Positions 3,280-55,597 of a stretch of DNA of 64,000 bases are shown here, one piece after another. The notes beneath the pieces are model-generated. The model worked only from the letters and a program-made list of their open reading frames with translations. It was not told the origin of the DNA and did no database searches. The position numbers were made by a program, and so were the translations under genes. Source of the DNA: Polyangiales bacterium (lineage in GTDB: Bacteria; Myxococcota_A; Polyangia; Polyangiales; Ga0077539); contig JAXLYI010000006.1 in assembly GCA_046351555.1 (NCBI GenBank), positions 250,284 to 314,283 on the forward strand, read 5' to 3'. Each line of letters opens with the position of its first letter. The stretch's first letter is position 1.

Positions 3280-3309
3280 AACAAGCGCTTTGCAGCGCCG
3301 TGCCCACCC

Positions 3310-40808: not shown

Positions 40809-41126
40809 TCACTCGACCGGCGAGGCGAGCCCGCCGCTGCGCGGGATCGGGATCTGCGGCGTGGGGCCGGCGAGCTGGAGATCGCGGGCCGGGAGCGCGG
40901 GCTCGGGCAGGGGGATGCCCTCGCGCGTGCCCTCGGGGACGCGCACGGCGTCGACCGCGGCGGGGAGGCTCGCGCGGACGTCGTGCTCGTGGCCCGACGC
41001 GACGGCGACGAGGCCGCTCCGCGTGGTGGCGAACACCGGGGACGCCGTCGTCACGGAGGAGGAGGCGCAGCCCGTGAGCCAGGCGCCGAGCGCGGAGGCG
41101 AGGAGCAGGGCGGACAGTCGCTTCAT
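40809..41126 (-). CDS. Small lipoprotein
   Basis: MKRLSALLLASALGAWLTGC lipobox. ATG overlaps the stop of the upstream regulator gene. Confidence 0.4.
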   Translation of the reverse strand: MKRLSALLLASALGAWLTGCASSSVTTASPVFATTRSGLVAVASGHEHDVRASLPAAVDAVRVPEGTREGIPLPEPALPARDLQLAGPTPQIPIPRSGGLASPVE

Positions 41127-44100
41127 GACTCGGGAGTATCGGTCGGATCGGACCCCCTGGCAAGGCCGTACTCCCGCACGAGCTGGGAGAGCCGCGGGCG
41201 CTTCATCCCGAGCAGCGCGGCGGCGCGGGTGATGTTGCCGCCGGCCTCGTCGAGGGCGCGCGCGATGCAGCCGCGCTCCACCTCGCGGCGCATGTCGAAG
41301 AGCGACACGCCGCCGTGCCGGATGCGGTCGTAGACGGCGTCGACCTCGTCGCGCGCGGCGGGCGCAGGCGCGGCGGGCGCGGTTGTCGAGGGCGCGAGTG
41401 TCATGGGCGCGCGCACCAGCTCGGGGAGGCCCTGGAGGTCGTCGGGGGCGATCTCGTCGCCGTCGGCGAAGAGGGCCGAGGCGCGCAGGACGTTCTCGAG
41501 CTCGCGGACGTTGCCCGGCCACGGGTGCTCGGCGAGCCGCCGCAGCGCCGCCGCGGTGAGCCGCCGGGGCGCCGCCTCCCCCGCGTCGCGCTCGAGGAAC
41601 CACGCCGCCAGCAGCGGCAGGTCTTCGAGGCGCTCGCGCAGCGGCGGGAGCTGGATGGTGAGCGACGAGAGCCGGAAGTAGAGGTCCTCGCGGAAAGTTC
41701 GGTCGCGAACCATCTGGGCGAGGTCGCGGTTGGTGGCGGCGATGATCCGCACGTCGACCTTGAGCGTCTCGTTGCCGCCGACGCGTTCGAAGGTGCGCTC
41801 CTGGAGCACGCGCAGCAGGGCGGCCTGGGTGGCCGGCGTCACGTCGCCGATCTCGTCGAGGAAGATCGTGCCGCCGTCGGCGAGTTCGAAGCGCCCGCGG
41901 CGGCGGCGGTCGGCGCCGGTGAAGGCCCCGCGCTCGTGGCCGAAGAGCTCCGAGAGCAGCACGCCCTCGGCCAGCGCCGCGCAGTTGACCTTCACCAGCG
42001 GCGCCGCCCGCCGGTGCGAGCCCTGGTGGAGCGCCTCGGCCACGCGCTCCTTGCCCGTGCCCGACTCGCCGTGCAGGAGCACCGTGACGTCCTGCGGCGC
42101 GACGCGCGCGATGCGTCGCCGCAGCTCGCGCATCGCCGCGCTCTCCCCGATGAGCCCGTGGCCCGTCGCGCGCACCGCCGCGGCCGGCGCGGGCCGCGGT
42201 CGCTCCGTCGGCGCCGCGCCCCCGGCGCCCTCCAGCCGCGCCGCGAGGAGCGCGCCGCCGCCGCGCGCGAGCTGCGCCCCGTACGACACCCGCAGCGCCT
42301 CGGGCACGCGCGCGAGGATCTCCTGCCGGAGCGCCTCGGCGAAGCCCGCCTGGCGCCGCGCGGCCGTCGGGTCGTCGCGGTCGAGCAGCGCCATCCCGAC
42401 GGCGACGTGGGCGCGGTAGCGGAGGTCGCGGTCGCTGGTGGCCTCGGCCAGCTCGAGGGCGCGGCGCGCGTGGGGAAGGCGTCCTCGCCGCGGCTGCGCG
42501 CGAGCTCGGCGGCGAGGAGCGCGCGCTCGACCCGCGCGGACGGGGCGCCGCCCTCCTCGGGCACGAAGGCGAGCTCGGCCTCGGCGCGCGGGAGGTCGCC
42601 GTCGACCAGGGCCGCGCGGGCGAGCAGGAGCCGCGCGTCGGCCTGCTGGAGCGCGTCGCCGACGGCGGCGAAGACCCCGAGCGCCTGGCCGAGCGAGGCG
42701 CGGGCGGCCTCGGTGCGCGCGTCGGCGAGCTCGACGCGGGCGCGGAGCATGAGGTTCTCCGCGGCGATGGGGCCGGTGAAGCCGCGGGCCACCTGGGCGG
42801 CGTACTCGCAGAGCCGCCGGGCGCGCGCCACCTCGCCGACGTGGGCGTAGAGCTCGCCGAGGTTGTGCGCGACGCGCGCGAGGAAGCGCCGGTTGCCCAC
42901 GCGCGTGAGGATCCCGAGGGCCTCCTGGTAGCGCTGGAGCGCGTCGCCGTAGCGGCCCTGGAGGTGCGCGACGACGGCCTCGTTCTCCCGCAGCACGCCG
43001 CGGAGCATCATCGAGCCGGCGCCGTCGGCCACCGCGCGCGCCTCGCCGAGCTGGCGGGCCGCCTCGTCGAGGTCGCCGCGCCAGATCGCCACCACGCCGA
43101 GGTTGATGAGCCCGCGCAGGATCTCCGTCCCCGCGCCCCGCGCCCGCGCCCGCTCCAACCCCTCGCGCGACCACTCCCACCCCGCGTCGAGCTCGCGCCG
43201 CGCGAGGAACACCTTCGTCATCGTGTTGCGCGCCCGCGTCGCCACCGGGTCGACGTCGCGCGACAGCGCGATCGCCTCCCGCGCGAGGCGCTCGGTCTCG
43301 TCGAGGCGGCCGCGAACGTACGAGAGCTCCGCGCGCAGCGCCGCGTTGGCCGCCCGCTGGGCGGTGTCGTCGTCGCGGGTGCGCGCGTCGGCCCGCCCGA
43401 GCGCCGCCTCGGCCGCGTCCCAGTCGCCCGCGCCGAGGGCGAGCGAGGCGTCGAGGCGCGGGAGCTCCGGGTCGTCGGGGGCGACGCGCTCGGCCGCGGC
43501 CACCACCGCGCGCGCCTCCGCGTGGGCCGCGATCGGGGGCGCCGCCGCGGCCGCGACGCGGGCGAGCTCGCGCGCGGTGTGGGGCGCGGCGTGCGGCGAG
43601 GCGAGGTGCGCGAGCGCGAGCGCCGACGCGGGCGCGTGACGTCGCAGGAGCGAGCGGGCAACGGCGACGGCCTCCGCAGCGGCCTCGGCGGGGCGGTCGC
43701 CGGCGAGTCGGTGGAGGACGGCTTCTTCGGGCGACGCGCGGCCCCAGGCGTCGAGCGCGACCCCGAGCGACTCGCGGAGGATCAGCAGCTCGCCCGCGTC
43801 GAGGCGCGCGAGGGCCGCCTCACCCTCGTCGTGGCGCGCGAGGCCCACCACCACGTCGCCCGCCGCCGGGTCGAGCGCGCGCCACGCCGTCGAGGCCGCG
43901 ATCAGCGTCGGGATCGCGCGGGTGACCGCCTGCGCGTCGACCCCGAGGGCCCCGGCCACCACGCCCGCGGGCAGCGGCCGGTCGGCGAGGCTCAGCGCGG
44001 CGAGCACCCGGCGCGGCAGCTCGCCGAGCTCGTCGAGGCGCGCGGCCACCTCGCTCTCGCGCGGCGGCGGCAGGCGCTCGAGCATCGCGAGGACGGCCGC

Positions 44101-44808
44101 GGGGTTGCCCGACGTCGCCGCGTGCAGGCGGGTGACGGCGGCCTCCGTGACGAGGATGCGCCGGACGCCGTCGGGCGAGAGGCCCTCGAGTTCGAAGCGC
44201 TCGGCGCGCGGGTGGTCGAGCGGGTCACCGAGATCGGCGGCTCGGATGCCCGCGACGAAGAGGGCCGCGGGCGCGCCGGGCGTGGGCTCGCCGGCGGGCC
44301 CGGCGGCGTCGAGGAGCGCGCGCACCAGGGCCCGCGTCGCGTCGTCGGCCCGCGACCAGCCGCGCAGGAGCACGAGCACCGGGCGCAGCCGGGCCACCGC
44401 GGCGAGCAGCCGGGCGACGGCCTCGGTGAAGCGGATCGCGGCCTCCTCGTCGCCGTCGTCGAGCGCGTCGCCCTCGCGGGCCCGCGCCGAGCGGGCGCCG
44501 ACCAGCGGGGCGAGGGCGTCGAGGTCGGCGGGCGAGAGGAGGTCCTGCGCGTCGCGGGCGCGCAGCCAGGCGAGGGCCTGCGCGGCGATCGGGACGAAGG
44601 GCGCGTAGGCCGCGTGCCGCACGCACCAGCCTTCGAGCGCGGGGAAGCCCGCCGCGCGGCACTGCTCGCGGAGCTCGTCGAGCAGGCGCGACTTGCCGAT
44701 GCCCGGGGGGCCGGTGACCGTCACCATCGACGCGCCGTTGGCCCCGGTGGCCTCGAGGCGCGAGGTGACCCACGCGAGCTCGCGCTCTCGTCCGACGCAG
44801 GCCGTCAT
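41123..44808 (-). CDS. Large AAA-ATPase/TPR/sigma-54 activator/HTH regulator with an apparent frameshift
   Basis: N-terminal Walker A VTGPPGIGKS and TPR-like repeats (938-aa ORF). C-terminal sigma-54 interaction domain (GESGTGKE, GAFTG, ESELFGHE-like) plus Fis-type HTH (685-aa ORF). The frames join if one C is added at the C4 run (+ strand G4 42473-42476). Confidence 0.65.
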
Positions 44809-45536
44809 GGCCCGGCGGTTCTATCACCACCGCGCGCCGCGACGCCATGGAGCACCAGCTCGATCAGCGCGCCGGTGACGGCCTCCGGCGAGCCGATCGC
44901 GCCCTCCGAGAGCGTGCGGAAGAGGATCGCCTCCACCGCCCCGAGCACCGCCGCCGCGCTCACCTCCGGGTCGACCGGGCGCAGCAGCCCGTGCGCGCGG
45001 CCCGCGAGGGTGAGCGCGAGGGCCCCGTCGCGCAGCGAGCGCGCGAGGGCCGCGATCGGGCGGCGCGCGCCGACGCCCGGGGCGCGCGACTCCTGGAGGT
45101 AGAGCCGCGCGACGGAGGGGTGGTCCATCAGGGCGGCGCCGCAGTCGGCGGCGAGCGCGGCGTAGGCGGCGACGAGGGCGCCGGGCTCCTCCGCGGCGCG
45201 CAGCGCGGCCTCGCAGCGCGCGAAGGCGTCGCGGAGCCGCGCGGACACCGGCTCGAGCAGCGCGTCGACCACGTCGGCCTTGTCCTTGAAGTACGTGTAG
45301 AAGCTGGCCTTGGAGACGCGGGCCCGCGCGGCGATGTCCTCCACCGCCACGGCCTCCACCCCCTGCTCGAGGAAGAGCCGCAGCGCCGCCGTGGCGATCG
45401 CCTCGGTGCGGGCGCGGCGCCGGCGGTCGCGGGGCCCCCCCTCGGGCCCGGGCCGCTCCTCGGGCACGCTCCGGGGCTCGACCCGCACGCGCTTCACCCG
45501 CGGGCTTGACACGGCGCCCCCGCGGGGTAGATGCAT
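44805..45536 (-). CDS. TetR-family transcriptional regulator
   Basis: HTH AIATAALRLFLEQGVEAVAVEDIAARARVSKASFYTYF. The stop overlaps the regulator ATG. The start is probably an internal GTG. Confidence 0.8.
   Translation of the reverse strand: MHLPRGGAVSSPRVKRVRVEPRSVPEERPGPEGGPRDRRRRARTEAIATAALRLFLEQGVEAVAVEDIAARARVSKASFYTYFKDKADVVDALLEPVSARLRDAFARCEAALRAAEEPGALVAAYAALAADCGAALMDHPSVARLYLQESRAPGVGARRPIAALARSLRDGALALTLAGRAHGLLRPVDPEVSAAAVLGAVEAILFRTLSEGAIGSPEAVTGALIELVLHGVAARGGDRTAGP
45506..45533 (+). promoter_or_regulatory. Candidate sigma-70-like promoter (TTGACA-N16-TAGATG) in the TetR/hydroxylase divergent region
   Basis: Perfect -35 hexamer and a weak -10, about 45 nt upstream of ATG 45578. 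Confidence 0.3.
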
Positions 45537-45577
45537 TGACCAGACGGTCGGGTTTTCAACGCACGCACGGAGCCCCC

Positions 45578-46135
45578 ATGATCGGAATCCCCCTGGCGCT
45601 CGCGGCCTTCAACGCGAGCGAGTGGCTGGTCCACCGCTACGTCCTCCACGGCCTCGGCCGGCGCAAGGGGACCTACTGGAGCTTCCACTGGCACGAGCAC
45701 CACCGCAACGCGCGGCGCCACGGCATGGACGACAGCGACTACCGCCGCGGGCTGCTCGGGTGGCACGCGCAGGCCAAGGAGGCCCTCGGGCTGGGGCTCT
45801 CGGCGCTGACGCTCCTGCCCCTGGCGCGGCGGGCGCCGTGGTTCGTCGCGACGGCCTGGGCGTGCCACGGGTACTACTACTACGTGCACCGCCGGTCGCA
45901 CCGCGACCCGGCCTGGGCGCGCGAGCACCTGCCCTGGCACTACGACCACCACATGGGGCCCAACCAGCACGCCAACTGGTGCGTCACGTACCCCTGGTTC
46001 GATCGGGTGATGGGCACGCGCGAGCCCTACGTCGGCACCGACCGGGAGGCGGCCGACCGGGCGCGCGCGGCGAAGCGGGCGGGGCGCGGGGGCGGGGCCG
46101 ACGACGCGGTGGAAGCGGGCGCGGTCACCGCGTGA
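45578..46135 (+). CDS. Fatty-acid hydroxylase/sterol desaturase superfamily membrane protein
   Basis: Histidine boxes HWHEHH, HRRSH and HYDHH. Divergent from TetR. Confidence 0.7.
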   Translation: MIGIPLALAAFNASEWLVHRYVLHGLGRRKGTYWSFHWHEHHRNARRHGMDDSDYRRGLLGWHAQAKEALGLGLSALTLLPLARRAPWFVATAWACHGYYYYVHRRSHRDPAWAREHLPWHYDHHMGPNQHANWCVTYPWFDRVMGTREPYVGTDREAADRARAAKRAGRGGGADDAVEAGAVTA

Positions 46136-46511
46136 CCTCGCCCCCGGCGGAGCGCGCCGGGGTCTCGTCGCCGACGTACTCCACGGCGGTGCCCACCATG
46201 ATCCGGCGCCCGCGCGTGGGGCGGCTGGTCACGTCGATGATGGCGTCGGCCTGGGCCTCGCAGCCGCCGAGGGCGAGGTGCTGGCGGCACTCGGCCTCCT
46301 TCGACTCGCCGCACTCCGCGGTCACCACGGCGAAGGCCTCGCGGGGCTGGTCGGGGCCGTGGTCGTTGTGAACCGGCAGGGACTCGGGCGTGCAAGCCTC
46401 TGCACGGGGGGCCCGGCGGTCGCCCATGCGCCGGACGTGGTGCGACGGTGACACGCACCCGAAGGCCGAGGCGAGGGCGAGGGTGGAGAGGAGAACAACG
46501 AAGCGGGGCAT
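46125..46511 (-). CDS. Small Cys-containing lipoprotein
   Basis: MPRFVVLLSTLALASAFGC lipobox. The listed ORF's N-terminal extension is rejected. Confidence 0.4.
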   Translation of the reverse strand: MPRFVVLLSTLALASAFGCVSPSHHVRRMGDRRAPRAEACTPESLPVHNDHGPDQPREAFAVVTAECGESKEAECRQHLALGGCEAQADAIIDVTSRPTRGRRIMVGTAVEYVGDETPARSAGGEVTR

Positions 46512-46711
46512 CGCGCGGATGATCGACGCAGGGCCGGTGCCCTGGCAATCACCTTCGCGGTGACGAACCCCATGGATCTGCGACGGCGTCTCGAGGTGCC
46601 GCGAGGACGGGGGAGCCCCCCGCGTCGTGGCCGGGATGGCGGTCCCCCATTCGGAGGGACCCACCGACGCGCCACGAAGCTCTTTCTCCAACATCAGCGC
46701 ACACCGTCGCC

Positions 46712-46733
46712 CCGTCGCAGATCGATGGGGTCC
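46712..46733. repeat. 22-bp direct repeat, copy 1 (ccgtcgcagatcgatggggtcc)
   Basis: Matches copy 2 at 20 of 22 positions. Intergenic. Confidence 0.5.
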
Positions 46734-46980
46734 GTTGTGGGCGCGGGATGTGAGATCCAGCGAAAGCCTCCGGTGACCGCGACCACGTCCGAAGTTGGAG
46801 CATGGTCCGTGCCGACGCTCGCGAGGGCGCAGCCGCGGGCGCGGGGAACCTCAACGATCTACGCCGGCGCCGCGGGCGGCCAGGTTGGCTGGTCCTCCCC
46901 CGGACCCGGAGTTCCGAACCGCCCGTCAAGTGCCCCCACTGTATGGGTCCTTTCAAACAGCCTCGTGGGAGCGAACGGCG

Positions 46981-47002
46981 CCGTCGCAGATCGTTGGTGT
47001 CC
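46981..47002. repeat. 22-bp direct repeat, copy 2 (ccgtcgcagatcgttggtgtcc)
   Basis: Matches copy 1 at 20 of 22 positions, 269 bp downstream. Confidence 0.5.
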
Positions 47003-47343
47003 TCCAAAAATGAGCAGACTGCTCAGTGCAACGGACAGACCGTCCTCGCCAAACCCTGCAACCCTCGAAACTCCGCAGTTTTCCTGAGAAATCCGCGGCC
47101 CTCACGATGCTCCCTAGCTACCCGAAGATGCAGTCGAGCATCGCGTGGGCGGAGGCGACCAACGCGCGGATGTCCCTGTGCAGCAAGGGGATGTGCTCGA
47201 ACATCCACCGCGCATCCCCCGGCGCGGCGTCCAGGGCGAGGGCGCTGGTTGGACGTTCCCGTCCACTGGGGGAGGGCCCCTGGCACGGTGCGGGCCGCCG
47301 GAAAGTGGGCGGCGTTGCACCGGTGCGACGATACTCGCGATCG

Positions 47344-48333
47344 ATGCAACCGCAGCCCGCCGCGCCCGATCTCCGCATGGTCGACCTCCGCTCGGTGCGC
47401 GTCCCCCCCTGGCGGCTCCGGGCGCTGGGTGACCTCGACGCCCTGCGCGAGTCGATCGCAGCCGCCGGGCTCCTCCACCCGATCGTGGTCGACCCGTCGC
47501 TCACCCTCGTGTGCGGGATGCACCGCCTCGAGGCCTGCCGCGCGCTCGGGTGGGAGACCATCCCCGCGCTCGTGACGTCGCTCGAGGGCCCCTACGCCCA
47601 GCTCGCCGAGGTGGACGAGAACCTCTGTCGACGCGAGCTCACCGTGCTCGAGCGCGCCGAGCACATCGCCCTCCGCCTCAAGCTCTGGGAGCAGACCCAG
47701 CCCCCGCCCCCCGAAGAGGCCGCCGCGAAGAAGAAGCCCCCGAAGCGCGCCGAGGCCCCGCTGGTGGCCTTCCTCGACGACACCGCGCGCCGCACCGGCC
47801 GCGGCAAGGCGGCGGTGCGCGAGGAGCTCCGCATCGGCGAGCTCCCCGAGGACGTGCGCGCCACCGCCCGCGAGACGCCCATCCACGACAACAAGCGCGA
47901 GCTCCTCGCCCTCACCCGCATGCCCGAGGAGGAGCAGCGCCGCGCCGTCCAGGCCGTGCGCGACGGCGAGGCGAAGAGCGTCCGCAAGAAGAAGCCCCCG
48001 CGCCCCAAGAGCGCCCCCGAGGCGGGCGAAGCCGCGGGCGCCGACGCACCCCCCGCGGGCACCGGGGGCCTGGTCGCGTCCGCGCTCCCCGAGGAGGAGG
48101 CGCCCACCTGGTCGCAGGACGGGAGCGCCTTCCTCGAGGAGCGCGCGCGCGCCGACGTGATCCGCATCGTCGGCGAGCTCCAGCGCCTGCTCGCGAAGGC
48201 CGGCACGCTCTGGACGTCGCAGCGCGACGAGAGCGGCGAAGGGCGCGAGCGCCTCGACGACGCGACGCGCGCGGTGGGCCGCCTCGCGCGCTGGATGGAG
48301 GGCGCCGGCGAGCCCGCCTCCGACGCCGCCTGA
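47344..48333 (+). CDS. ParB/Spo0J-like protein (orphan, no ParA)
   Basis: ParB N-terminal box LLHPIVV ... GMHRLEACR. HTH region ELRIGELPEDVRA ... LTRMPEEEQ. K/P-rich low-complexity segments. Confidence 0.6.
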   Translation: MQPQPAAPDLRMVDLRSVRVPPWRLRALGDLDALRESIAAAGLLHPIVVDPSLTLVCGMHRLEACRALGWETIPALVTSLEGPYAQLAEVDENLCRRELTVLERAEHIALRLKLWEQTQPPPPEEAAAKKKPPKRAEAPLVAFLDDTARRTGRGKAAVREELRIGELPEDVRATARETPIHDNKRELLALTRMPEEEQRRAVQAVRDGEAKSVRKKKPPRPKSAPEAGEAAGADAPPAGTGGLVASALPEEEAPTWSQDGSAFLEERARADVIRIVGELQRLLAKAGTLWTSQRDESGEGRERLDDATRAVGRLARWMEGAGEPASDAA

Positions 48334-48442
48334 GCGCGCCCGCGCCCGCGACGTCGCGCCGGTAGAAGGTTGACGGCGCGCGCGCAGAAGCCTTGGATTG
48401 CCGCGATTTTCACGCGGCCCGGCGATTGCTTTTCTCCGCCGC

Positions 48443-48952
48443 ATGCGACTCGCGACGCTCACGCTCGCATGGCTCGCGGCGGGCTGCGCGTCGACCGTCG
48501 ACGGCGACGTCGACGGCGGCGGCCGCGACGTGGCCGACGCGCGCGGCGACGCGTTCGCGCGCGAGGTCGCGTACTTCGACGCGTCGGCGTACGAGATCTT
48601 CCGCGACCCGCCGTGCCCCGACGGCGGCGCGGGCCCGCGGCGCGTGTACGAGTGCGACCCGCTGCGGCAGACGGGCTGCCCCGTGCGCCAGGGCTGCTAC
48701 GTGTACGTCGACCCGCCCGCCGACCGCTGCGGCGCGGAGACGTACCGCGCGCGGTGCTTCGGCGAGGGGGCGCGCACGCAGGGGCAGTTCTGCACCGGCG
48801 GGGCGGAGTGCGCCGTCGGCTACAGTTGCTTCATCACGGGCGCGATGAACCGCTGCCTCCGCCTCTGCCGCCTCGACGGCGACGGGGCGCCGTGCGCGCG
48901 CGGGCTGGTGTGTCAGCCGACCGACCTTCCCGACTTCGGGGCGTGCAACTGA
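48443..48952 (+). CDS. Cys-rich lipoprotein
   Basis: MRLATLTLAWLAAGCAST lipobox and 16 Cys. The stop overlaps the next ATG. Confidence 0.5.
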   Translation: MRLATLTLAWLAAGCASTVDGDVDGGGRDVADARGDAFAREVAYFDASAYEIFRDPPCPDGGAGPRRVYECDPLRQTGCPVRQGCYVYVDPPADRCGAETYRARCFGEGARTQGQFCTGGAECAVGYSCFITGAMNRCLRLCRLDGDGAPCARGLVCQPTDLPDFGACN

Positions 48953-50520
48953 TGACCCCCTTCGCGCGACTCCGAGCGCTCGTCGCGTGCGTCGCCGCGC
49001 TCGGCTGCGGCGCGCGCACGGGGCTCACCGACCGCGAGCCCGCGGCGCCGTGCGAGCACGACGAGTCGTGCGACGACGGGCTCTGGTGCAACGGCGCCGA
49101 GACCTGCCGCGCGGGCCGCTGCGCGCCGGGCACGCCCGTCGTGTGCGAGGGCGCCGCGCAATGCCTCGCGGCGACGTGCGACGAAGCGACGCGCGCCTGC
49201 GTCCGCGGGCCCGCCACGGAGGATCGCGACGGCGACGGGCACCGCGCGCCGCGCCCGGGGACGCGGCCCGGCGCGCCGGGCGCGTGCGGTGATGACTGCG
49301 ACGACAACGACCGCTTCGTCCGCCCCGGCGCGACCGAGGTGTGCAACGGCCGCGACGACGACTGCGACGGCGCCGTCGACGAGGGCGCGACGCTCTCCGC
49401 GCAGGACGACCCGGTGCTCGTGAGCGAGGCGGCGATGGCCCCGTCGGGGCCCGGCGGGCTCGCGTGGACGGGGTCGTCGTACGCGGCGAGCTACTGGGGC
49501 TACAGCGCGTCGAAGGCCCACGTGTACTTCTCGCGGCTGTCGCGCGAGGGGGCCGCGGTGGCGCCGCGCCGGCAGCTCACGACGATGCCGGCGGACGCGT
49601 TCGGCGCGGCGATCGCGTGGACGGGCGAGCGGCTCGGCGCCGCCTGGCAAGACCGCCGCGACGCCACCGGGGGCTACGAGGCGTACCTCAACCGCCTGAC
49701 GCTCGACGGCGAGAAGCTCGGGCCCGACCAGCGGGTCTCCTTCGCGCGCGGCTACTCGGTCAACGCGTCGATCACGTGGACGGGCGCGGCCTTCGTGCTC
49801 GCGTGGCAGGACGAGCGCGACCGGCTCGGCAGCGGGCTCTACGAGCTCTACGCGCAGCGGGTCGACGCCGAGGGCGGGCTGCTCGGCCCCGACCAGCGCC
49901 TCACCCGCGACGCGAGCACCAGCGAGAACCCCTCGGTCGAGCGCGGCCCCGACGGGCGCGTCGGCCTCGCGTGGATGCGCCGCGGGGGCGACGGACGCGC
50001 GGTGTGGTTCATGACGGCCGACGACGCGCTCCACCGGGTCGGGGCGGAGGCGCGGCTCTCCCCGCCCGGCCAGCAGGCCGTCAACGCCGCCCTCACCTGG
50101 AGCGGCGACCGCTGGGTCGTCGCCTGGTACGACGACGACCCGTCGTCGCCCGACCACGAGGTGTGGGGCGCCGCGGTCGACCGCGAGGGGCGCCCGCTCG
50201 TCGCCGCGCGGAGGCTCACGCGCGACCCGGGCTTCTCGCGCTACCCGGCCCTCCTGCCGCTCGGCGACCGCTTCCTCATGGTGTGGAGCGACGACCGCGA
50301 GGGCGGGCGCTACGGGCTCTTCGCGCAGGTGTTCTCGTTGGCGCTCGACCCGCTGACGGAGGCGTCGGCGGTGACGCGCGCGACGACGCCCACCACCGCG
50401 AGCGTCTACCCCGCGCTCTCACGCGGCCCCGAGGGCGACGTCGGCGTGCTCTTCCGCGACCAGCGCGACGGGCGCATCCAGACGTGGTTCACGCGATTGC
50501 GCTGCGCCATCCCGCGCTGA
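48952..50520 (+). CDS. Lipoprotein with MopE-like putative metal-binding Cys/Asp motifs and propeller-like repeats
   Basis: Lipobox ALGCGA. DRDGDGHR ... CGDDCDDND ... CNGRDDDCDG motifs. Then W/D-rich repeats (AWQDRRD, AWQDERD, VWSDDRE). Confidence 0.5.
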   Translation: MTPFARLRALVACVAALGCGARTGLTDREPAAPCEHDESCDDGLWCNGAETCRAGRCAPGTPVVCEGAAQCLAATCDEATRACVRGPATEDRDGDGHRAPRPGTRPGAPGACGDDCDDNDRFVRPGATEVCNGRDDDCDGAVDEGATLSAQDDPVLVSEAAMAPSGPGGLAWTGSSYAASYWGYSASKAHVYFSRLSREGAAVAPRRQLTTMPADAFGAAIAWTGERLGAAWQDRRDATGGYEAYLNRLTLDGEKLGPDQRVSFARGYSVNASITWTGAAFVLAWQDERDRLGSGLYELYAQRVDAEGGLLGPDQRLTRDASTSENPSVERGPDGRVGLAWMRRGGDGRAVWFMTADDALHRVGAEARLSPPGQQAVNAALTWSGDRWVVAWYDDDPSSPDHEVWGAAVDREGRPLVAARRLTRDPGFSRYPALLPLGDRFLMVWSDDREGGRYGLFAQVFSLALDPLTEASAVTRATTPTTASVYPALSRGPEGDVGVLFRDQRDGRIQTWFTRLRCAIPR

Positions 50521-50574
50521 ATCTTTGCCCCCGCCCCTTCCCGCGCTCCCCCCGCTCGCATAGAACACCCGCTC

Positions 50575-52797
50575 ATGGGAACCCCTCCGCTTGCTTGCCG
50601 CATGCGCGCGCTCGCCGCCGTCGCTGTCGCGCTCCTCGCCGCCCGCTGCACCGGCGCCACCGCGCCCCTCACGCCCGACGACGTCCCGCGCGCCACGCCC
50701 TGCACCGCGGGGATGACGGTCGCGTGCCCCTGCCCCAACGGCGCGGCGGGGATCCAGACCTGCGACCCGAGCTCCGGCGTCTTCAGCGCGTGCGCGTGCC
50801 TGTCCGTCGACGGCGGCCTCGACGCGACCGTGGTCCCGGACGCGACGCCGACCGACACGACCGTCGTCCCGGACGCGTCGCCCGCGGACGTCTCGGACGC
50901 GACGATCGTCTCGGACGCGCCGCCGGCCGACCGCCCCGTCTCCCCCGATGCGCCCGACGTCCCCGTCGCCACCGACGTCCCCATCGCCACCGACGTCCCC
51001 ATCTCGCCGACCGACGTCCCCGACGCGCCCAGCACATCGGGCACGCTCGTCTACGCCATCACGGGCCTCTCGGTCGACCGCGGCCCCGGCGGCGTAGCCC
51101 CCAACCCGGCGACGCAGGCGCAGGGGGTGGCGGGCTTCAACCTCGACGGGCGCTTCTCGGGCTTCACGGGCTCCGCCGCCGCCGACTGCGCGCACGGCGA
51201 TTTCTTCTCCGACCTCGACCCCGACCAGAACATGGGCACCTGCGCCACGGGCACGCTGCGCGGCGGCCCCTCGTGCACGGGTGGCGTCGACAACCAGCTC
51301 CCCGAGTTCGCCAGCATCTTCTCGGGCTTCGGCACCGACATCGCCACGGCCCTCGCCGACGACGTCCGCCAGGGCCGCACCGCGGTCGTCCTCCGCGTGA
51401 CGGGCGTCGACGGCGCGCCGGGCCCCTCGCTCGACGACCCCGCGGTGCGCGTGCTGGTGTACCCCGTCGCGCACCCCGCCTTCGCCAACTGCGCCTCCCT
51501 CGGCACGCCGGGTCTGGTCTACGCGGTCGACGACGCCTCGCTCGCGACGCCCGGCGACCTCGAGAGCGCGCGCCTCACGTTCACCGGCCGCATCGCGCGC
51601 GGCAGGCTCATCGTCGACCCGCCCGCCTCGGCCGCGGGCGCCGTCTTCCCGCTCACCTTCTCGACGCCGGCGCCGCTCACCGTGCCCCTCCAGGCCGCGC
51701 AGATCCGTTTCTCCGTCGCGCCCGACCAGGCGACCGGCGGCAACCTCGGCGGCTACACGCCCCTCGGCACGCTCGTCGCGCAGTTTCGCACCGTCCTCCC
51801 CGAGAGCATCCCCGACAGCACCGTCGCGACGGTGCTCTCGTCGCTCATCGACGTGCAGCTCCCGGCGGGGTCGGCGGCGGGCTGCGCTCCTCCCAACGGC
51901 GCCATCGCGATGGGCCTCGGGTTCACCGCCACGCGCGCGGCGATCGCGCCCACCACCGTCCGCGCGGCGGCGCCCGGCACCTGCGGCGGCCCACCGGGCC
52001 CCACCCTCGGCGCCTGCTACACCGAAGAGGCCGCCGGCGCCCTCTGCCCCGCCGCCGCCGTCGCGCAGGCGGACGCGACGCGCCCCTCGTACCGCGTCAC
52101 GCACGTCCGCGTCACCGCGCCCACCGCCCTCACCTCGCCCATCCTCCAGAACACCCTCAACGACGCGCTCCACCGCGGCAACTTCCTCTGGGGCCTCTCG
52201 CTCGACGTGCCGGGCCGCGCGCTTCGAAGCGGCGCGCTCAACCCCGCGCGCGTCACGCACGGCACCGTGGGCCAGGGCCTCTTCGACGGAACCTTCCGCT
52301 ACCACGCCGGCGACGCCCCCGGCGGATCCGCGACCCGCTACGACCCCGCGTCCACCACGCTCACCGGCACCGCCGCGAGCGCGTCGAGCGGCACCCTCAC
52401 CTCGCTCCGCCTGCCGATCTTCGACGCGTCCGGGGCGCCGCTCGCCGAGCTCCCGCTGCGCGACGTGCGCTTCACCGCGATCCGCCCCGCGGACGGGACG
52501 CGCTGCGTCGGGCTCGGACTCCTGAGCGGCGGCCGCTTCAACGAGTGCACGAGCGCGTGGCAGACCGCCGACGCGACGTCGCCCAACGGCGCCGTCGAGG
52601 GCGTCTTCACCGTCGCCGACGCGCGCACCGTCCAGATCCCCGCGCTCGCGACCTCGCTCTGCAACGTGCTCGCGGGCAGCGACTGCGACATGGTCCCGCA
52701 GGCGATGTGGATGCGGCCGCCCGACGCGACCGCCGGGGGCGCCGCGGGCTGGCGCTTCACCGCGGAGTTCGCCGCCGTGTCCGCGCGCATCCCGTGA
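50575..52797 (+). CDS. Secreted hypothetical lipoprotein
   Basis: Signal peptide and P/D/T-rich linker. The 740-aa ORF has normal composition. Confidence 0.45.
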   Translation: MGTPPLACRMRALAAVAVALLAARCTGATAPLTPDDVPRATPCTAGMTVACPCPNGAAGIQTCDPSSGVFSACACLSVDGGLDATVVPDATPTDTTVVPDASPADVSDATIVSDAPPADRPVSPDAPDVPVATDVPIATDVPISPTDVPDAPSTSGTLVYAITGLSVDRGPGGVAPNPATQAQGVAGFNLDGRFSGFTGSAAADCAHGDFFSDLDPDQNMGTCATGTLRGGPSCTGGVDNQLPEFASIFSGFGTDIATALADDVRQGRTAVVLRVTGVDGAPGPSLDDPAVRVLVYPVAHPAFANCASLGTPGLVYAVDDASLATPGDLESARLTFTGRIARGRLIVDPPASAAGAVFPLTFSTPAPLTVPLQAAQIRFSVAPDQATGGNLGGYTPLGTLVAQFRTVLPESIPDSTVATVLSSLIDVQLPAGSAAGCAPPNGAIAMGLGFTATRAAIAPTTVRAAAPGTCGGPPGPTLGACYTEEAAGALCPAAAVAQADATRPSYRVTHVRVTAPTALTSPILQNTLNDALHRGNFLWGLSLDVPGRALRSGALNPARVTHGTVGQGLFDGTFRYHAGDAPGGSATRYDPASTTLTGTAASASSGTLTSLRLPIFDASGAPLAELPLRDVRFTAIRPADGTRCVGLGLLSGGRFNECTSAWQTADATSPNGAVEGVFTVADARTVQIPALATSLCNVLAGSDCDMVPQAMWMRPPDATAGGAAGWRFTAEFAAVSARIP

Positions 52798-54707
52798 AGG
52801 CACCTCGACTCGCCGCGCGGGTCTCCGCCGCCGTCCTCGCCGCGGCCTCCGGCGCTACCCTCCGCTCGATGACGCCCTTCACCCCGTGGTGGGGCGACGT
52901 CGCGCTCTTCGCGAGCTTCGCCGCCATGGGCTGGTGGGGCGTCCGCACCGCCGAGCGCCTCCCCGACGCGACGCCGCGCGCGCAGGTGTTCGCCGGCGCC
53001 CGCTGGATCGCCCTCGCCGGCCTCCTCGTCGTCGGCTTCGGCTTCGCCGTGACGGCCTCGTCGCGCGCGGAGATGGCCGGGCTCCTGGGCTTCGCGTTCC
53101 TCACGCTGGGGGCGCTGCTGACGGCGGTGGCCGCGGGGGGCGTCGCGATCGGCTGCGCCACGGGCCGCGTCGTCGTCGCGCTGGGCGACGCCCCACCGCG
53201 CGACGCGCTCGACCACCTCGCCGCCCGCGTGGCGCTCTGGCACGGGCTCGCGGGCGCGCTGCTGTTCGTGGCGGGGCGCGGGATGGTCGTCTGGCTCGGC
53301 CTCGCCGAATCGCTCGCGGCGGTCGCGCTGGCCGCCGTCGCGTGGCGCCGCGACGGCGCGCGCCTCGCGTGGGTCGAGCGCGTGAAGGCCGGGCGCGAGC
53401 CCCCGTGGCGCTGGGAGACGTCGCCGCGCGCGGGCGCGCCCCGCTGGTCGGCGGCCGACGACGCGACGGCCACGGCCGCGATCGTGCGGGGCCCCGAGGC
53501 GCGCGCGGAGTCCCCCTTCCGCGATGCGCCCGCGGAGCCGCTGGAGGCGTGGTCCGCGTCGGAGGCGCTGACCGACCGGCTCCGCGCGCGCCGCCGGCGA
53601 ACCGCGGTGACGGCGGGCGCGACCCTCTGCGCGCTCGGCGTGGCCGCGCTCGTGTACCGCTCGGTGGCCGCGCACTCCTTCCCAGAAGGGACCACCGTCC
53701 CCGCGCGCGTCCGCTCGCTCGGCGGCGACGTCGCCCGCGCGCGCGGCGCCAACGGGGCCGTGTGCGTCGAGCTCGACGGCGACCCGACGCCGCGCTGCTG
53801 GGGCAACCACGCCTGGCGCTTCGCCGGGATCGACCAGGCCCGCCGCGCGCCGACGTCCCTCGACGCGCTCCGCGGGCTGCGCGGACTCTCGCTGGGCTTC
53901 ATGCACGCGTGCGCGGTCCGCGCGGACGGGCGCGTCGCGTGCTGGGGCCACGGCGGCGACGGGCGCCTCGGCGGCAACGGCGAGGACGCACGGCGCCCGC
54001 GGGTGGTGGCCGGCGTCGACGGCGTCGCGCAGGTGGCGGTGGGCGGCGCCTTCTCCTGCGCGCTCCGCCGCGACGGGAGCGCGTGGTGCTGGGGATGCTC
54101 GCCGCTCCGCGCGCGCACCGACCCCGGTGGCTGCGCGGTGTACGCACCCGAGCGCGTCGCGAACGTCCCCGCCTTCGCGGAGCTCGCCGCGGGCGAGGCG
54201 CACGCCTGCGGCCGCACCGAGGACGGCGCCGTGTGGTGCTGGGGCGCCATCGGCGCGATGCCGGCCGAGCAGGGCGTGTTCGCGCTCGGCCCGCAGCCAC
54301 CGCGGCGCGTGCCGTTGGAGGCGCCGGCGCGCGCGATCTTCGCGGGGCCCTACGGCGGTATTGCGCTCGACGCGCGCGGCCGCGCGTGGTGGTGGGGCGA
54401 CGTGCGCGGGCTCGACCGGCCGCCGGGCGTCGTGCCGGGCGGCGTCGCGGAGCTGCCGCTGGCGGTCGCGTCGGTGTCGCAGGCGGCGGATGGCGGCTGC
54501 GCGCTCCTGCGCGACGGGGCGGTGGCGTGCTGGGGCGACAACGGCCGCGGGCAGCGGGGCCTCGGGCACCGGAACGCGGTGGTGGGCGTGACGCGCGTGC
54601 CGGGCGTCGCGGGGATGCGGGGCGTGACGACGGCCGACGGCGGCGCGTGCGCGTGGGGCCCCGCGGGCGTGGTGTGCTGGGGAACGATGGGGCAGGAGGG
54701 CTGGTAG
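52794..54707 (+). CDS. RCC1-repeat protein with N-terminal polytopic membrane domain
   Basis: GTG overlaps the previous stop. Hydrophobic N-terminal roughly 200 aa. Then RCC1-like repeats (ACWGHGGDGRLG, AWCWG, AVWCWG, VACWGDNGRGQRG). The listed 1788-aa ORF is chimeric. Confidence 0.6.
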   Translation: MKAPRLAARVSAAVLAAASGATLRSMTPFTPWWGDVALFASFAAMGWWGVRTAERLPDATPRAQVFAGARWIALAGLLVVGFGFAVTASSRAEMAGLLGFAFLTLGALLTAVAAGGVAIGCATGRVVVALGDAPPRDALDHLAARVALWHGLAGALLFVAGRGMVVWLGLAESLAAVALAAVAWRRDGARLAWVERVKAGREPPWRWETSPRAGAPRWSAADDATATAAIVRGPEARAESPFRDAPAEPLEAWSASEALTDRLRARRRRTAVTAGATLCALGVAALVYRSVAAHSFPEGTTVPARVRSLGGDVARARGANGAVCVELDGDPTPRCWGNHAWRFAGIDQARRAPTSLDALRGLRGLSLGFMHACAVRADGRVACWGHGGDGRLGGNGEDARRPRVVAGVDGVAQVAVGGAFSCALRRDGSAWCWGCSPLRARTDPGGCAVYAPERVANVPAFAELAAGEAHACGRTEDGAVWCWGAIGAMPAEQGVFALGPQPPRRVPLEAPARAIFAGPYGGIALDARGRAWWWGDVRGLDRPPGVVPGGVAELPLAVASVSQAADGGCALLRDGAVACWGDNGRGQRGLGHRNAVVGVTRVPGVAGMRGVTTADGGACAWGPAGVVCWGTMGQEGW

Positions 54708-54722
54708 GGAGCAGCGGGACGC

Positions 54723-55544
54723 TCACCCCCTCGGCGCCCACGCCGCGTCGAGGAAGCCGAGCAGCTCGCGGTCGAGGCGCGCCGGGCTCCAGCGCCACTC
54801 GAGGATCGACGTCGCCTCCACCAGCCGCGCACCCGGCAACTCGCGCGCGAGCATGTCGGCGTCGCTGAAGGGGTGGATCGGGTCGCGCGCGTGGCCGATC
54901 ACCAGCGCCGGGTGCTTGAGCCGCTTGCGCTCGGAGGCCGGCGGCGCGACGCGGCCGAAGGTGATCCCGTCGAGGATCGCCAGGGACGTCTCCGGGTCGC
55001 GCCGCACGAAATCGATCATCAGGTCGGCGAGGAAGACCGTCCGCGGGATGAGCCGCGTGGCGGCGGCGAGGAGGTTCATCCCGCGGCGGCTGACGCGGAT
55101 GGCGAAGGCCAGGGGAACGAAGAGCGCGCCGGCGCCGGCGAGGCCGTTCTCGAGCACGGGCATCTCGACGACGAGGGCGCGCACGCGGTCGGGCGCGGCC
55201 ACCGCCACCTCCAGCGAGACGTTGGCCCCGAGCGACGTGCCGCCCACCACCGCCTGCGGGACGCCGAGGTGGTCGAGCAGCGCGATCACGTCGCGCCCGT
55301 AGAGCGTCATCGAGTGGGCCGTCATGTCGCGCACCGGGTCAGAGTCGCCGTGGCCCAGCATGTCGACCGTCAGCACCCGGTACCCCCGCGCCGCCAGCTC
55401 CGGCGCCAGCTTCTGGAACATCCTCCCGTCCATCAGCAGCCCGTGCGTGAGAACCACCACGCGCATGCCCGCGCCGTACTCGCGCCACGCGATCCGCCGG
55501 CCGTCGCGTTCGAAGTGCTGGGAGGGGGGGACGTTGTTCGCCAT
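54723..55544 (-). CDS. Alpha/beta hydrolase
   Basis: VLTHGLLMDG and the GTSLG nucleophile elbow. Confidence 0.8.
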   Translation of the reverse strand: MANNVPPSQHFERDGRRIAWREYGAGMRVVVLTHGLLMDGRMFQKLAPELAARGYRVLTVDMLGHGDSDPVRDMTAHSMTLYGRDVIALLDHLGVPQAVVGGTSLGANVSLEVAVAAPDRVRALVVEMPVLENGLAGAGALFVPLAFAIRVSRRGMNLLAAATRLIPRTVFLADLMIDFVRRDPETSLAILDGITFGRVAPPASERKRLKHPALVIGHARDPIHPFSDADMLARELPGARLVEATSILEWRWSPARLDRELLGFLDAAWAPRG

Positions 55545-55597
55545 ACGCCCGCGGAGACTACGACAGGCGCGCGCCGCGAGACGAGCCTCCGTCGCGC

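Follow-up and report, generated by a model that had tools for sequence, protein, structure and literature searches.

Four conserved repeats upstream of a Polyangiales lipoprotein gene are the probable arms of two long hairpin stems in a predicted sigma-54-type RNA

Classical promoters of the glnAp2/NtrC type carry GG and GC elements and are preceded by two dyads that lie about two helical turns apart, ~100-120 bp upstream. The sites of ParB-family proteins, in turn, are palindromes of ~13-16 bp. The Pxr sRNA of Myxococcus xanthus and its relatives is a myxobacterial RNA that is apparently transcribed by sigma-54, adjoins nla19, the gene of a sigma-54-dependent activator, and contains several stem-loops; its coding region of 108 nt has three of them, and each homolog examined in that study is flanked by nla19 on one side and a NADH dehydrogenase gene on the other (PMC5568312). 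The NrsZ sRNA of Pseudomonas aeruginosa depends on NtrC and RpoN, is transcribed from a sigma-54 promoter and is encoded beside the gene for an enhancer-binding protein. It consists of repeated, similar stem-loop modules with spacers and is processed into these modules: a primary transcript of at least 226 nt yields three short modules that resemble one another, the first of them 60 nt long, and the conserved functional motif lies in the loops (PMC4253122).

In the window, by which we mean the whole 64-kb stretch of Polyangiales DNA that was analysed, four copies of a 22-base repeat lie between a lipoprotein-like gene and a ParB-like gene. In RNA form, these repeats would most likely pair into two long hairpin stems of a predicted ~500-nt transcript, which is probably a regulatory RNA that is new but belongs to a familiar kind. 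The reading we favor, with a probability of roughly 0.6, is that of a highly structured, sigma-54-dependent leader or ncRNA of the lipoprotein gene. Like Pxr, the predicted RNA is myxobacterial and has a sigma-54 promoter candidate, an activator gene nearby and multiple stem-loops. Compared by description, it differs from Pxr in its length (~450-500 nt), in its two closing stems of 22-30 bp that share the same sequence, and in its location in Polyangiales, immediately before a lipoprotein gene and with the activator three genes away. With NrsZ it shares the pairing of a sigma-54 promoter, here a candidate, and an activator with repeated stem modules, but in the predicted RNA the stem itself is the conserved repeat and the enclosed domains of 100-125 nt are mutually unrelated, with processing presumed. 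The candidate promoter resembles the glnAp2/NtrC type in its GG/GC spacing, its paired dyads, an AT-richer and possibly bending spacer, and an AAA+ activator with a Fis-type HTH. It departs from that type in its -24 hexamer, which is not TGGCAC, and in the activator, which has a large AAA_16/TPR (STAND-like) sensory part rather than a receiver domain. The encoding of a ParB_N plus HTH protein beside clustered 22-bp repeats recalls ParB-parS, KorB-OB and Noc-NBS, yet here the repeat is asymmetric, parS is absent from the window and the array does not track ParB in relatives.

The gap, described initially as lacking a credible open reading frame, extends from 46512 to 47343, between the lipoprotein-like ATG at 46511..46509 on the minus strand and the start of the ParB-like gene at 47344. 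No protein-coding signal was found in it by codon-position GC, by indel lengths or by tblastn across orthologous loci. Codon-position GC was flat in every ORF spanning the gap (0.66-0.70 at positions 1-3), unlike the real genes of the window, in which GC3 exceeds 0.9. Comparison of the gap ORFs with the orthologous loci by tblastn gave only fragmentary matches that hop between frames, and the indels that distinguish the loci in the array region are not multiples of three in length. The AT-richer core of the gap was also borne out, with a GC content of 0.605 at 46900-47199 compared to 0.76 window-wide. No conserved protein gene occupies the locus and the relatives carry the repeats, the two points on which the initial annotation had staked its reading.

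As shown in Table 1, the repeats form an array of four 22-base copies, A to D, in the orientation - + - +, ~135-147 bp apart in the window. Copies B and D are the two direct repeats reported initially, and they are indeed identical at 20/22 positions, or 22/25 when extended; the inverted copies A (2 mismatches) and C (4 mismatches) had been missed. With up to three mismatches allowed, the motif was found three times in the window where 0.05 occurrences were expected, a count reached in 0/100 shuffles. The motif is asymmetric (4-6/22 self-complementary) and similarity among the copies is limited to it, the intervening DNA being unrelated. Tandem duplication of a 270-bp unit was rejected, as the motif alone aligns. 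A third partial copy, ATGGGTCC, had been proposed near 46948; the 8-mer is literally present, but it is conserved in none of the orthologous loci, and for that reason we take it as a chance match.

Table 1. Coordinates of the array, the predicted RNA elements and the neighbouring genes in the window.
Feature	Position	Strand	Description
Sigma-54 enhancer-binding protein gene	41123..44808	-	AAA_16 and TPR sensor part, then Sigma54_activat and HTH_8
Lipoprotein-like gene	46125..46511	-	128 aa; signal peptide and lipobox ...LASAFGC; high GC3; downstream of the predicted RNA
Sigma-70-like promoter	46519..46548	-	TTGCCA-18-GATCAT; ends 7 nt before the lipoprotein ATG
Repeat copy A	46565..46586	-	3' arm of the predicted promoter-distal stem (helix 12), pairs with B; complementarity reaches 46563-46599
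Inner domain of stem B:A	46587..46711	-	helices 14-18; ~125 nt
Repeat copy B	46712..46733	+	first repeat of the initial annotation; 5' arm of helix 12 in the predicted minus-strand RNA; invariant in 5/5 loci
Middle hairpin between B and C	46734..46789	-	helix 9 and inner helices; 8/14 pairs compensatory
Repeat copy C	46846..46867	-	3' arm of the predicted promoter-proximal stem (helix 2), pairs with D; stem reaches 46844-46873
Inner domain of stem D:C	46874..46974	-	helices 3, 4 and 6; ~100 nt
Repeat copy D	46981..47002	+	second repeat of the initial annotation; 5' arm of helix 2; stem reaches 46975-47005
Candidate sigma-54 promoter GGTCTGTCCGTTGCA	47027..47041	-	GG at -24, GC at -12; predicted TSS ~47016
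Two 16-bp dyads GATGCTCCCTAGCTAC, GATGCAGTCGAGCATC	47106..47142		candidate enhancer (UAS) sites, 21 bp apart
ParB-like gene	47344..48333	+	ParB_N domain, weak HTH_ParB; neighbour of the predicted element

Comparison across related genomes, a check proposed at the outset, showed that the four-copy array is kept in the same order and with the same spacing. It was found in five diverged Polyangiales loci (the window, L001, L002, L055 and L253), and the L001-type array was present also in L254, L255 and L259, which are independent assemblies from other samples, making eight assemblies altogether. The main lineages are only 63-74% identical overall while the repeat arms are nearly invariant. The comparative set amounts to five sequences from one narrow clade, in which L253 is close to L001 (93% identical overall). 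Metagenome and viral collections were scanned with the 14-base core CGTCGCAGATCNNTGG, and the matches listed were mostly single chance ones; a screen of these listed matches with the full 22-mer gave one new array only, that of L055. L086, where the match falls in a peptidase coding sequence, L012 and L058 were set aside as chance matches. A search for more distant arrays that was anchored on the small hydroxylase-like neighbour protein (PF04116) returned no additional arrays, and it indicated that the TetR-hydroxylase pair is widespread while the module of lipoprotein gene plus array is not. The element is confined to a narrow clade.

Within that clade the array is linked to the lipoprotein gene and not to ParB. 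An orthologue of the lipoprotein (74-79% amino acid identity) accompanies the array in 5/5 loci and was found in none of the other loci searched, whereas relatives of the ParB-like protein at 61-68% identity occur without the array in L003, L004, L261 and L262. In L001 and L055, moreover, a 1.66-kb gene (553 aa) sits between the array and ParB. A remnant of this gene was sought in the window by tblastn and blastn, and none was found.

The consensus structure predicted by RNAalifold for the minus strand of the five loci has an energy of -187.6 kcal/mol and 153 pairs. In this fold 91.2% of cells were paired and 37/153 pairs had changes on both sides, compared to 19.4±2.9 in shuffles (0/500 as high) and 8-10 in slid controls, although these paired and covariation scores are inflated because the structure was derived from the same five-sequence alignment on which it was scored. 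The compensatory pairs are spread over the helices of both inner domains, with 6/10 in helix 18 and two in helix 17 of the B:A domain and 3/6 in helix 3 and 4/8 in helix 4 of the D:C domain. The apical hairpin of the B:A domain, at 46638-46664, differs in spelling from genome to genome, yet its pairing stays perfect, and even L001 and L253, at 93% overall identity, are two double substitutions apart in it. Helix 12, in contrast, has 20/21 pairs invariant, and both closing stems are much more invariant in sequence than pairing alone demands. Where the arms do change, cognate arms co-vary: position 14 has gone from T to C in both C and D of L002, and positions 17-18 are AA/AA in L001 and L253. 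An attenuator-like switch of four segments, in which C would pair with B, was considered and rejected, since the non-cognate C:B pairing decays while the cognate pairs co-vary.

Several comparisons favor the minus strand as the one that would be transcribed. The fixed arm differences across genomes give G·U pairs in a minus transcript and A·C mismatches in a plus transcript, and over all helices there were 87 G·U-type cells compared to 26 A·C-type, a count that is biased by the use of a minus-strand fold. Consensus energies favored the minus strand on the same alignment (-187.6 versus -168.7 for the plus strand) and on 4-sequence alignments (-175.6 versus -140.7). In single genomes the two strands differ by 5-37 kcal/mol, which falls inside the range of control segments (mean absolute difference 22.6). 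The folding z-scores, near -4 for either strand as inverted repeats would produce, do not discriminate between strands. No terminator was seen after arm A. The Rfam scan that had also been proposed gave no family match and returned only sub-threshold noise from eukaryotic miRNA and lncRNA families.

Upstream of arm D, on the minus strand, the sequence GG-N8-TTGCW is present 24-25 nt to the right of D in 5/5 loci, placing the predicted transcription start 13-14 nt from the arm. The sigma-54 consensus is TGGCAC-N5-TTGCW, with a canonical spacing of GG-N10-GC. The -24 hexamer of the candidate is weak by this standard (CGGTCT or TGGCCT compared to TGGCAC), and the minimal pattern is not rare, with 7 occurrences in the window against 5.3 expected, so that the weight of the candidate comes entirely from its positional conservation. 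Farther upstream, a pair of dyads of the form GATGC-N6-GCWWC is found in 5/5 loci with a spacing of 20-21 bp, and the centres of these candidate UAS lie at -97.5 and -118.5 from the predicted start, ±2 bp across loci, inside the range of ~80-150 bp upstream that is typical of activator-binding dyads. From D to the UAS, invariance is limited to the columns GG.C, GTTGC and two GCATC half-sites; the DNA between the candidate UAS, the promoter and the arms is poorly conserved despite the constant distances. A minus-strand hairpin at 47025-47011 was discarded as a terminator because it straddles the predicted start and is conserved only partly. The CTGGCAAT block was likewise discarded as a plus-strand sigma-54 promoter, as it lacks the proper spacing and is not kept in L002. 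It makes a better minus-strand -35 element.

A gene for a sigma-54 enhancer-binding protein lies three genes to the left of the array. Its frame at 41123-43180 matches Sigma54_activat (PF00158, 7e-70) and HTH_8 (1e-8), and the protein matches NCBIfam models of the NifA/NtrC class. In the window the gene is split over two frames, with the apparent frameshift at about 41990-42155, whereas the orthologue in L254 is intact and encodes 1223 aa; a genuine split may mean a silent promoter in this genome. Judged by sequence, the GG/GC elements, the upstream dyads and the nearby bEBP gene together appear to give the locus the anatomy of a sigma-54-controlled transcription unit.

These elements can be assembled into a single model. 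Leftward transcription would begin at about 47016 from the sigma-54-type promoter at 47041..47027, which would be activated from the two GATGC dyads near -97 and -118, probably by the enhancer-binding protein encoded three genes leftward. In the resulting RNA, arm D would pair with arm C around ~100 nt, the middle hairpin would follow, and arm B would then pair with arm A around ~125 nt, with the lipoprotein AUG (46511) ~52 nt further on. The transcript would then serve the lipoprotein mRNA as a regulatory 5' leader, or else be an ncRNA in its own right, made just upstream of the lipoprotein gene. We infer promoter firing, sigma-54 dependence, the exact 5' and 3' ends and the role of the RNA. 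An ncRNA locus had been one of the readings offered in the initial annotation, and it is the one favored here by the promoter-like element and UAS geometry on the minus strand, the nearby activator gene and the compensatory changes.

The invariance of the stems beyond what pairing requires suggests that they are also recognized by sequence, whether by an enzyme that processes the RNA or by a partner that is itself protein or RNA. RNase III naturally cuts perfect duplexes of 22-30 bp. Cleavage by this enzyme at the stems would detach the leader and free the two enclosed domains. A variant of the model takes this further and views the element as a stand-alone, sigma-54-controlled ncRNA of ~450 nt that founds a new family, its invariant stems being read or processed by a dedicated partner and its domains released as regulatory RNAs. 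RNase III could be that partner, as could a protein that acts on the duplex in a sequence-specific way, for example the neighbouring ParB-like HTH protein. We consider this variant rather unlikely, and we retain it because the stems are far more conserved than pairing needs. A model confined to RNA leaves the identical sequence of the two stems unexplained, and one invariant sequence in two stems that enclose unrelated domains is a puzzle for experiment.

The same identity can be turned into an argument for DNA-binding sites. The initial annotation had suggested a cis-regulatory array or centromere-like site for the downstream ParB; more broadly, the copies could be an operator array for the ParB-like protein or another regulator, controlling the divergent promoters or blocking the leftward transcript. 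That one sequence is kept in all four copies, with A and B invariant across five genomes, would then be expected, and the outer copies face outward to both flanking genes, with 16 nt between the end of copy A and the -35 element of the lipoprotein promoter. Each array locus also has a gene for a ParB-like HTH protein within 0.35-2 kb, but this synteny is uninformative, as the array loci are all close relatives. A centromere is not supported: the motif is no palindrome, unlike parS, no match to the parS consensus with three or fewer mismatches was found in the 64-kb window, and, as described above, ParB relatives lack the array, which tracks the lipoprotein gene. The wider operator reading meets the same asymmetry of the motif and the same ParB relatives without such an array, and the array stays with the lipoprotein gene despite the intervening gene before ParB. 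Centre-to-centre distances of the copies vary across loci (125-147 bp) without helical phasing, and protein sites account for neither the compensatory changes of the inner hairpins nor the covariation of cognate arms. We regard an operator array as unlikely, if the strongest of the competing explanations; it could coexist with the RNA model.

Explanations based on mobile or rearranging DNA fare worse. The A/B and C/D pairs resemble terminal inverted repeats of 22-37 bp around ~100-125 bp, which would make the gap the remnant of two adjacent MITE-like elements of ~160-170 bp, or some other functionless scar. A GC content below that of the surroundings is in keeping with such an origin, and the repeated loss or deletion of the neighbouring 553-aa gene shows that the locus is plastic. 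However, the insertion scar suggested initially is hard to reconcile with an array that is syntenic and strongly constrained in five diverged genomes, with nearly invariant arms. No further copy was found in the 64-kb window or, besides the orthologous arrays, among 246 loci screened, the inner segments of the two units do not resemble each other, plasmid and phage records hold nothing similar to the region, and there is no transposase gene nearby, all of which makes a mobile remnant very improbable. Asymmetric repeats of ~22 bp in strictly alternating orientation are also the layout of a shufflon, as in R64 sfx/Rci, and the array lies between divergent genes, one of them for a surface lipoprotein, so that a recombinase might flip the segments and switch the flanking promoters. 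However, the eight assemblies are all collinear and none carries an inverted segment, no recombinase domain was detected in the neighbouring genes examined (41-57 kb), and the compensatory changes within the segments point to selection on hairpins and not to a flippable promoter; an inversion switch is scarcely credible on these grounds. Finally, the compensatory changes would keep hairpins equally well in single-stranded DNA, such as a transfer origin or an origin of single-strand replication, perhaps with the ParB-like protein, and ParB-like genes often accompany plasmid or ICE functions. Here too the odds are slight: the neighbourhood holds no relaxase, replication or transfer genes, the lack of similarity to plasmid or phage records applies equally, the context is chromosomal and syntenic across genomes, and the conserved geometry of promoter plus UAS points to transcription.

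If the sigma-54-dependent RNA is the right reading, a candidate structured RNA with no Rfam match joins the short list of RNAs controlled by sigma-54 and an activator, for which Pxr is the comparable myxobacterial case found in the literature; no such RNA was found described in the literature searched on uncultured Polyangiales. The prediction is complete enough for testing in that it names the activator gene, the two dyads, the promoter, the start point and the fold. A tempting mis-annotation is set right as well, as repeats beside an orphan ParB need not be its centromere. The wider significance of the element is moderate because the clade is narrow and its general logic is ordinary.

The ParB-like protein scored below the cut-offs of all NCBIfam families, including ParB, Noc, RepB and PRTRC-ParB, and the lipoprotein-like protein matched no family in Pfam or NCBIfam. 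The lipoprotein gene has a sigma-70-like promoter of its own directly before the ATG (1 site found, 0.0 expected), whose ATTGCCAG and GATCAT blocks are kept with their 18-nt spacer in 5/5 loci. Given this conserved promoter, the lipoprotein gene need not depend on a long leader, and a leaderless, proximal lipoprotein transcript may be produced from it.

The gap between the lipoprotein-like gene and the ParB-like gene lies in a window of 76% GC, whose nearest relatives are metagenome-assembled genomes of Polyangiales (myxobacteria). Since real genes at this composition have a GC3 above 0.9, a plot of GC by codon position cleanly parts coding from non-coding DNA. From 46560 to 47040 this GC3 signal breaks down, which agrees with the initial annotation that the gap holds no credible ORF. 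All ORFs spanning the gap, whichever the strand, had GC1-3 of about 0.66-0.70 and gave only fragmentary, frame-shifting matches to the orthologous loci by tblastn; in the alignment of orthologous gaps, the length of many indels is not divisible by three. The lower-GC core noted in that annotation was also found (GC 0.605) and coincides with the candidate promoter, the spacer between promoter and upstream activator site (UAS) and the loop of the first hairpin. Local GC3-like periodicity (GC3 0.83) was seen at 47040-47280 in the window only, with a minus-strand ORF (47118-47378) overlapping the UAS dyads. A Pfam search with this ORF gave no match, and its sole match in relatives is the part overlapping the start of ParB.

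Two direct repeats of 22 bp had been reported in the gap. Both are present and exceed chance (three matches at ≤3 mismatches versus 0.05 expected), but the count was incomplete, as two further copies on the opposite strand had been overlooked. The four copies, A to D, have the consensus CCGTCGCAGATCNNTGGGGTYC; the DNA between them does not align, leaving the motif alone common to them. Near 46948, where a third partial copy had been proposed, the 8-mer exists but is not conserved. One perfect copy of the 22-mer (CCGTCGCAGATCGGTGGGGTCC) occurs at 8274-8295 of L012, an unrelated metagenome contig of 69% GC; it is intergenic, has no partner copy alongside and, given the size of the collection, is probably due to chance.

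Features of the array locus and its relatives (window positions unless a locus is named)
Feature	Position	Strand	Remarks
Sigma-54 activator gene	41123-44808	-	three genes left; AAA_16/TPR sensor part, then Sigma54_activat (7e-70) and Fis-type HTH
Lipoprotein-like gene	46125-46511	-	left flank of gap; signal peptide and lipobox
Sigma-70-like promoter, TTGCCA-18-GATCAT	46519-46548	-	ends 7 nt before lipoprotein ATG; conserved in 5/5 loci
Repeat copy A	46565-46586	-	
Repeat copy B	46712-46733	+	
Repeat copy C	46846-46867	-	
Repeat copy D	46981-47002	+	
Candidate sigma-54 promoter, GGTCTGTCCGTTGCA	47041-47027	-	right of D; GG and GC at sigma-54 spacing, perfect -12 TTGCA
GTCCA/TGGAC repeats and GGACG-N-TTCGTCC	47240-47270; L001 about 4215-4260; L002 about 1720-1765; L055 about 1700-1730		
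ParB-like gene	47344-48333	+	right flank of gap; ParB_N 6.9e-7, weak HTH_ParB
553-aa membrane-protein gene	L001 4288-5949		intact
553-aa membrane-protein gene	L055 1778-2914		present; contig ends inside gene
553-aa membrane-protein gene	L253 about 3285-3355		internal deletion, start fused to C-terminal part

Scanning species-representative genomes with the ParB-like protein yielded four Polyangiales loci, two of which (L001 and L002) bear the same four-copy array, again ordered - + - + and with copies 125-147 bp apart. L055 came from the matches listed in a motif scan of metagenomes, and homologues of ParB led to L253 and to three more independent assemblies of the L001 type. Identity among the five distinct arrays is 63-74%, except for L001 and L253 (93%), and the arms (the copies as halves of RNA stems) are almost invariant. 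The order is lipoprotein, array, ParB in the window, L002 and L253; in L001 and L055 a gene for a 553-aa membrane protein, which matched no Pfam or NCBIfam family, lies between array and ParB. This gene is absent from the window (47143-47343) and from L002 with no detectable remnant; several of these lineages have lost it or carry it in decayed form. Four loci carrying relatives of ParB (L003, L004, L261 and L262; 61-68% identity) have no array, whereas a lipoprotein orthologue accompanies the array and was missing from every other locus searched; for these reasons the array is assigned to the lipoprotein side and not to the ParB side. Genes for a TetR regulator and for a small fatty-acid-hydroxylase-like protein of about 180 aa (PF04116) form a divergent pair at 44805-46135, which is also present in loci L263, L264 and L266. 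This pair occurs widely across Myxococcota, with 946 homologues at E <=1e-15; the module of lipoprotein gene and array beside it is confined to one narrow clade of Polyangiales.

GG-N8-TTGCW was found 24-25 nt from copy D in every array locus. The minimal sigma-54 pattern is not rare alone (7 in the window versus 5.3 expected). Within an otherwise poorly conserved stretch of the five-way alignment, GG.C, GTTGC and two GCATC half-sites are precisely the clusters that stay invariant. These half-sites are parts of two dyads of 16 bp (GATGC-N6-GCWWC) with a spacing of 20-21 bp, whose centres lie at -97.5 and -118.5 (±2 bp) relative to the predicted start in 5/5 loci; that start falls 13-14 nt before arm D, again in all five. 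The layout of the candidate minus-strand promoter and its dyads is the textbook one for a sigma-54 promoter with an upstream activator site. The activator orthologue in L254, an L001-type locus from another sample, is a single 1223-aa ORF. In the window the gene is split over two frames (AAA_16/TPR in 41992-44808, Sigma54_activat and HTH_8 in 41123-43180), and its span of 3686 nt is not a multiple of 3. Either the frameshift is real, in which case the predicted promoter would be silenced in this genome, or the assembly is wrong at this point.

A leftward transcript from about 47016 would contain arm D, arm C, a middle hairpin, arm B and arm A, with the lipoprotein AUG 52 nt further on. The predicted D:C stem has arms of 31 and 30 nt and 28 pairs; the predicted B:A stem has 22-nt arms and 21 pairs, and complementarity reaches 37-nt arms in the window. 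The consensus fold of the five-sequence alignment comprises 153 pairs, with 91.2% of cells paired. Changes on both sides were found in 37 pairs, compared to 19.4 ± 2.9 in column shuffles (0/500 reached 37) and 8-10 with partners slid by 1-3 columns, for few sequences of one clade and a structure derived from the alignment used for testing. Two hairpins hold most of the compensatory changes relative to their length: 8 of 14 pairs in the middle one and 6 of 10 in the apical one of the B:A domain. The apical stem pairs perfectly throughout with a different sequence in each genome, and two double substitutions separate even L001 from L253 there. Cognate arms also co-vary, with T to C at position 14 in both C and D of L002 and AA at positions 17-18 in both C and D of L001 and L253, while complementarity between the non-cognate arms C and B erodes, which favours two fixed hairpins over an attenuator-like switch.

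The minus strand is favoured mainly by the orientation of the promoter and UAS. Differences between arms that are fixed across genomes (T versus C, G versus A) would pair as G·U wobbles in an RNA of the minus strand and would be A·C mismatches in one of the plus strand, and the helices hold 87 G·U-type versus 26 A·C-type cells, a count biased by how the fold was obtained. The consensus fold is also the more stable one on the minus strand, with -187.6 versus -168.7 for the plus strand of the same alignment (-175.6 and -140.7 with 4-sequence alignments). Single-sequence energies all favour the minus strand, yet the differences are within the range of control segments, and folding z-scores were about -4 on both strands.

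Based on the promoter/UAS geometry and the compensatory changes, an ncRNA locus, one of the alternatives raised in the initial annotation, is the best-supported reading (probability about 0.6). Its parsimonious form would be a heavily structured 5' leader of the lipoprotein mRNA, controlled by sigma-54 and an activator, or an ncRNA just upstream. No terminator was seen after arm A, which favours read-through into the lipoprotein gene. The conserved sigma-70-like promoter suggests that this gene also has a proximal, leaderless transcript, in which case the long RNA may be an inducible alternative or a separate product. Pairs are unchanged at 20/21 positions of B:A and 19/28 of D:C, and the two stems keep one and the same sequence, while the other helices drift freely by compensation. 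Invariance beyond the needs of pairing suggests an extra, sequence-specific reader of the stems, which might be an enzyme that processes the RNA or else a partner, either protein or RNA. RNase III classically acts on perfect duplexes of such a length (22-30 bp), and cleavage in the stems would set free the two enclosed domains.

The stem sequences could also act at the DNA level as operators for the ParB-like or another protein, a role that could coexist with one in RNA. The suggestion that the repeats form a centromere for ParB is unsupported, as the tested defining features of a ParB-parS array failed, including co-occurrence with ParB: the array does not follow ParB in relatives. A MITE likewise fails the tested features, with unrelated DNA between copies and no further array copies in the window or, apart from the orthologous arrays, in the other loci scanned, and an inversion system is countered by eight collinear assemblies with no recombinase nearby. 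An Rfam scan of the region matched no family and none of the plasmid and phage records resembles it. Pxr, an sRNA of myxobacteria, lies next to the activator gene nla19 and is apparently made from a sigma-54 promoter (PMC5568312), and NrsZ is an NtrC/RpoN-dependent sRNA of repeated stem-loop modules that is processed into modules (PMC4253122). The proposed ncRNA is alike in kind to Pxr and to NrsZ. Unlike either, it would precede a lipoprotein gene and carries the conserved repeat in stems, not loops; its predicted size is also different.

Right of the UAS, GTCCA/TGGAC inverted repeats and a GGACG-N-TTCGTCC block are conserved in the window, L001, L002 and L055; this region probably controls what lies to the right, whether the 553-aa gene, ParB or both. 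At 47281-47296 (+), some 50 nt ahead of the ParB ATG, TGGCAC matches the -24 hexamer perfectly and is followed by GC at sigma-54 spacing (TGGCACGGTGCGGGCC); L002 does not conserve it, so that it may be chance. Just upstream of the same ATG, a block of about 60 bp (47285-47343; 72-75% identity in the window, L001 and L002) holds a small CCGCC...GGCGG hairpin and, 8 nt ahead of the ATG, a -10-like GATACT; ParB may be transcribed from a proximal promoter of its own into an mRNA almost without a leader. Downstream of ParB, 48370-57107 holds a conserved run of large secreted/repeat proteins (MopE-type metal-binding motif, RCC1 repeats) that is syntenic in L247-L258.
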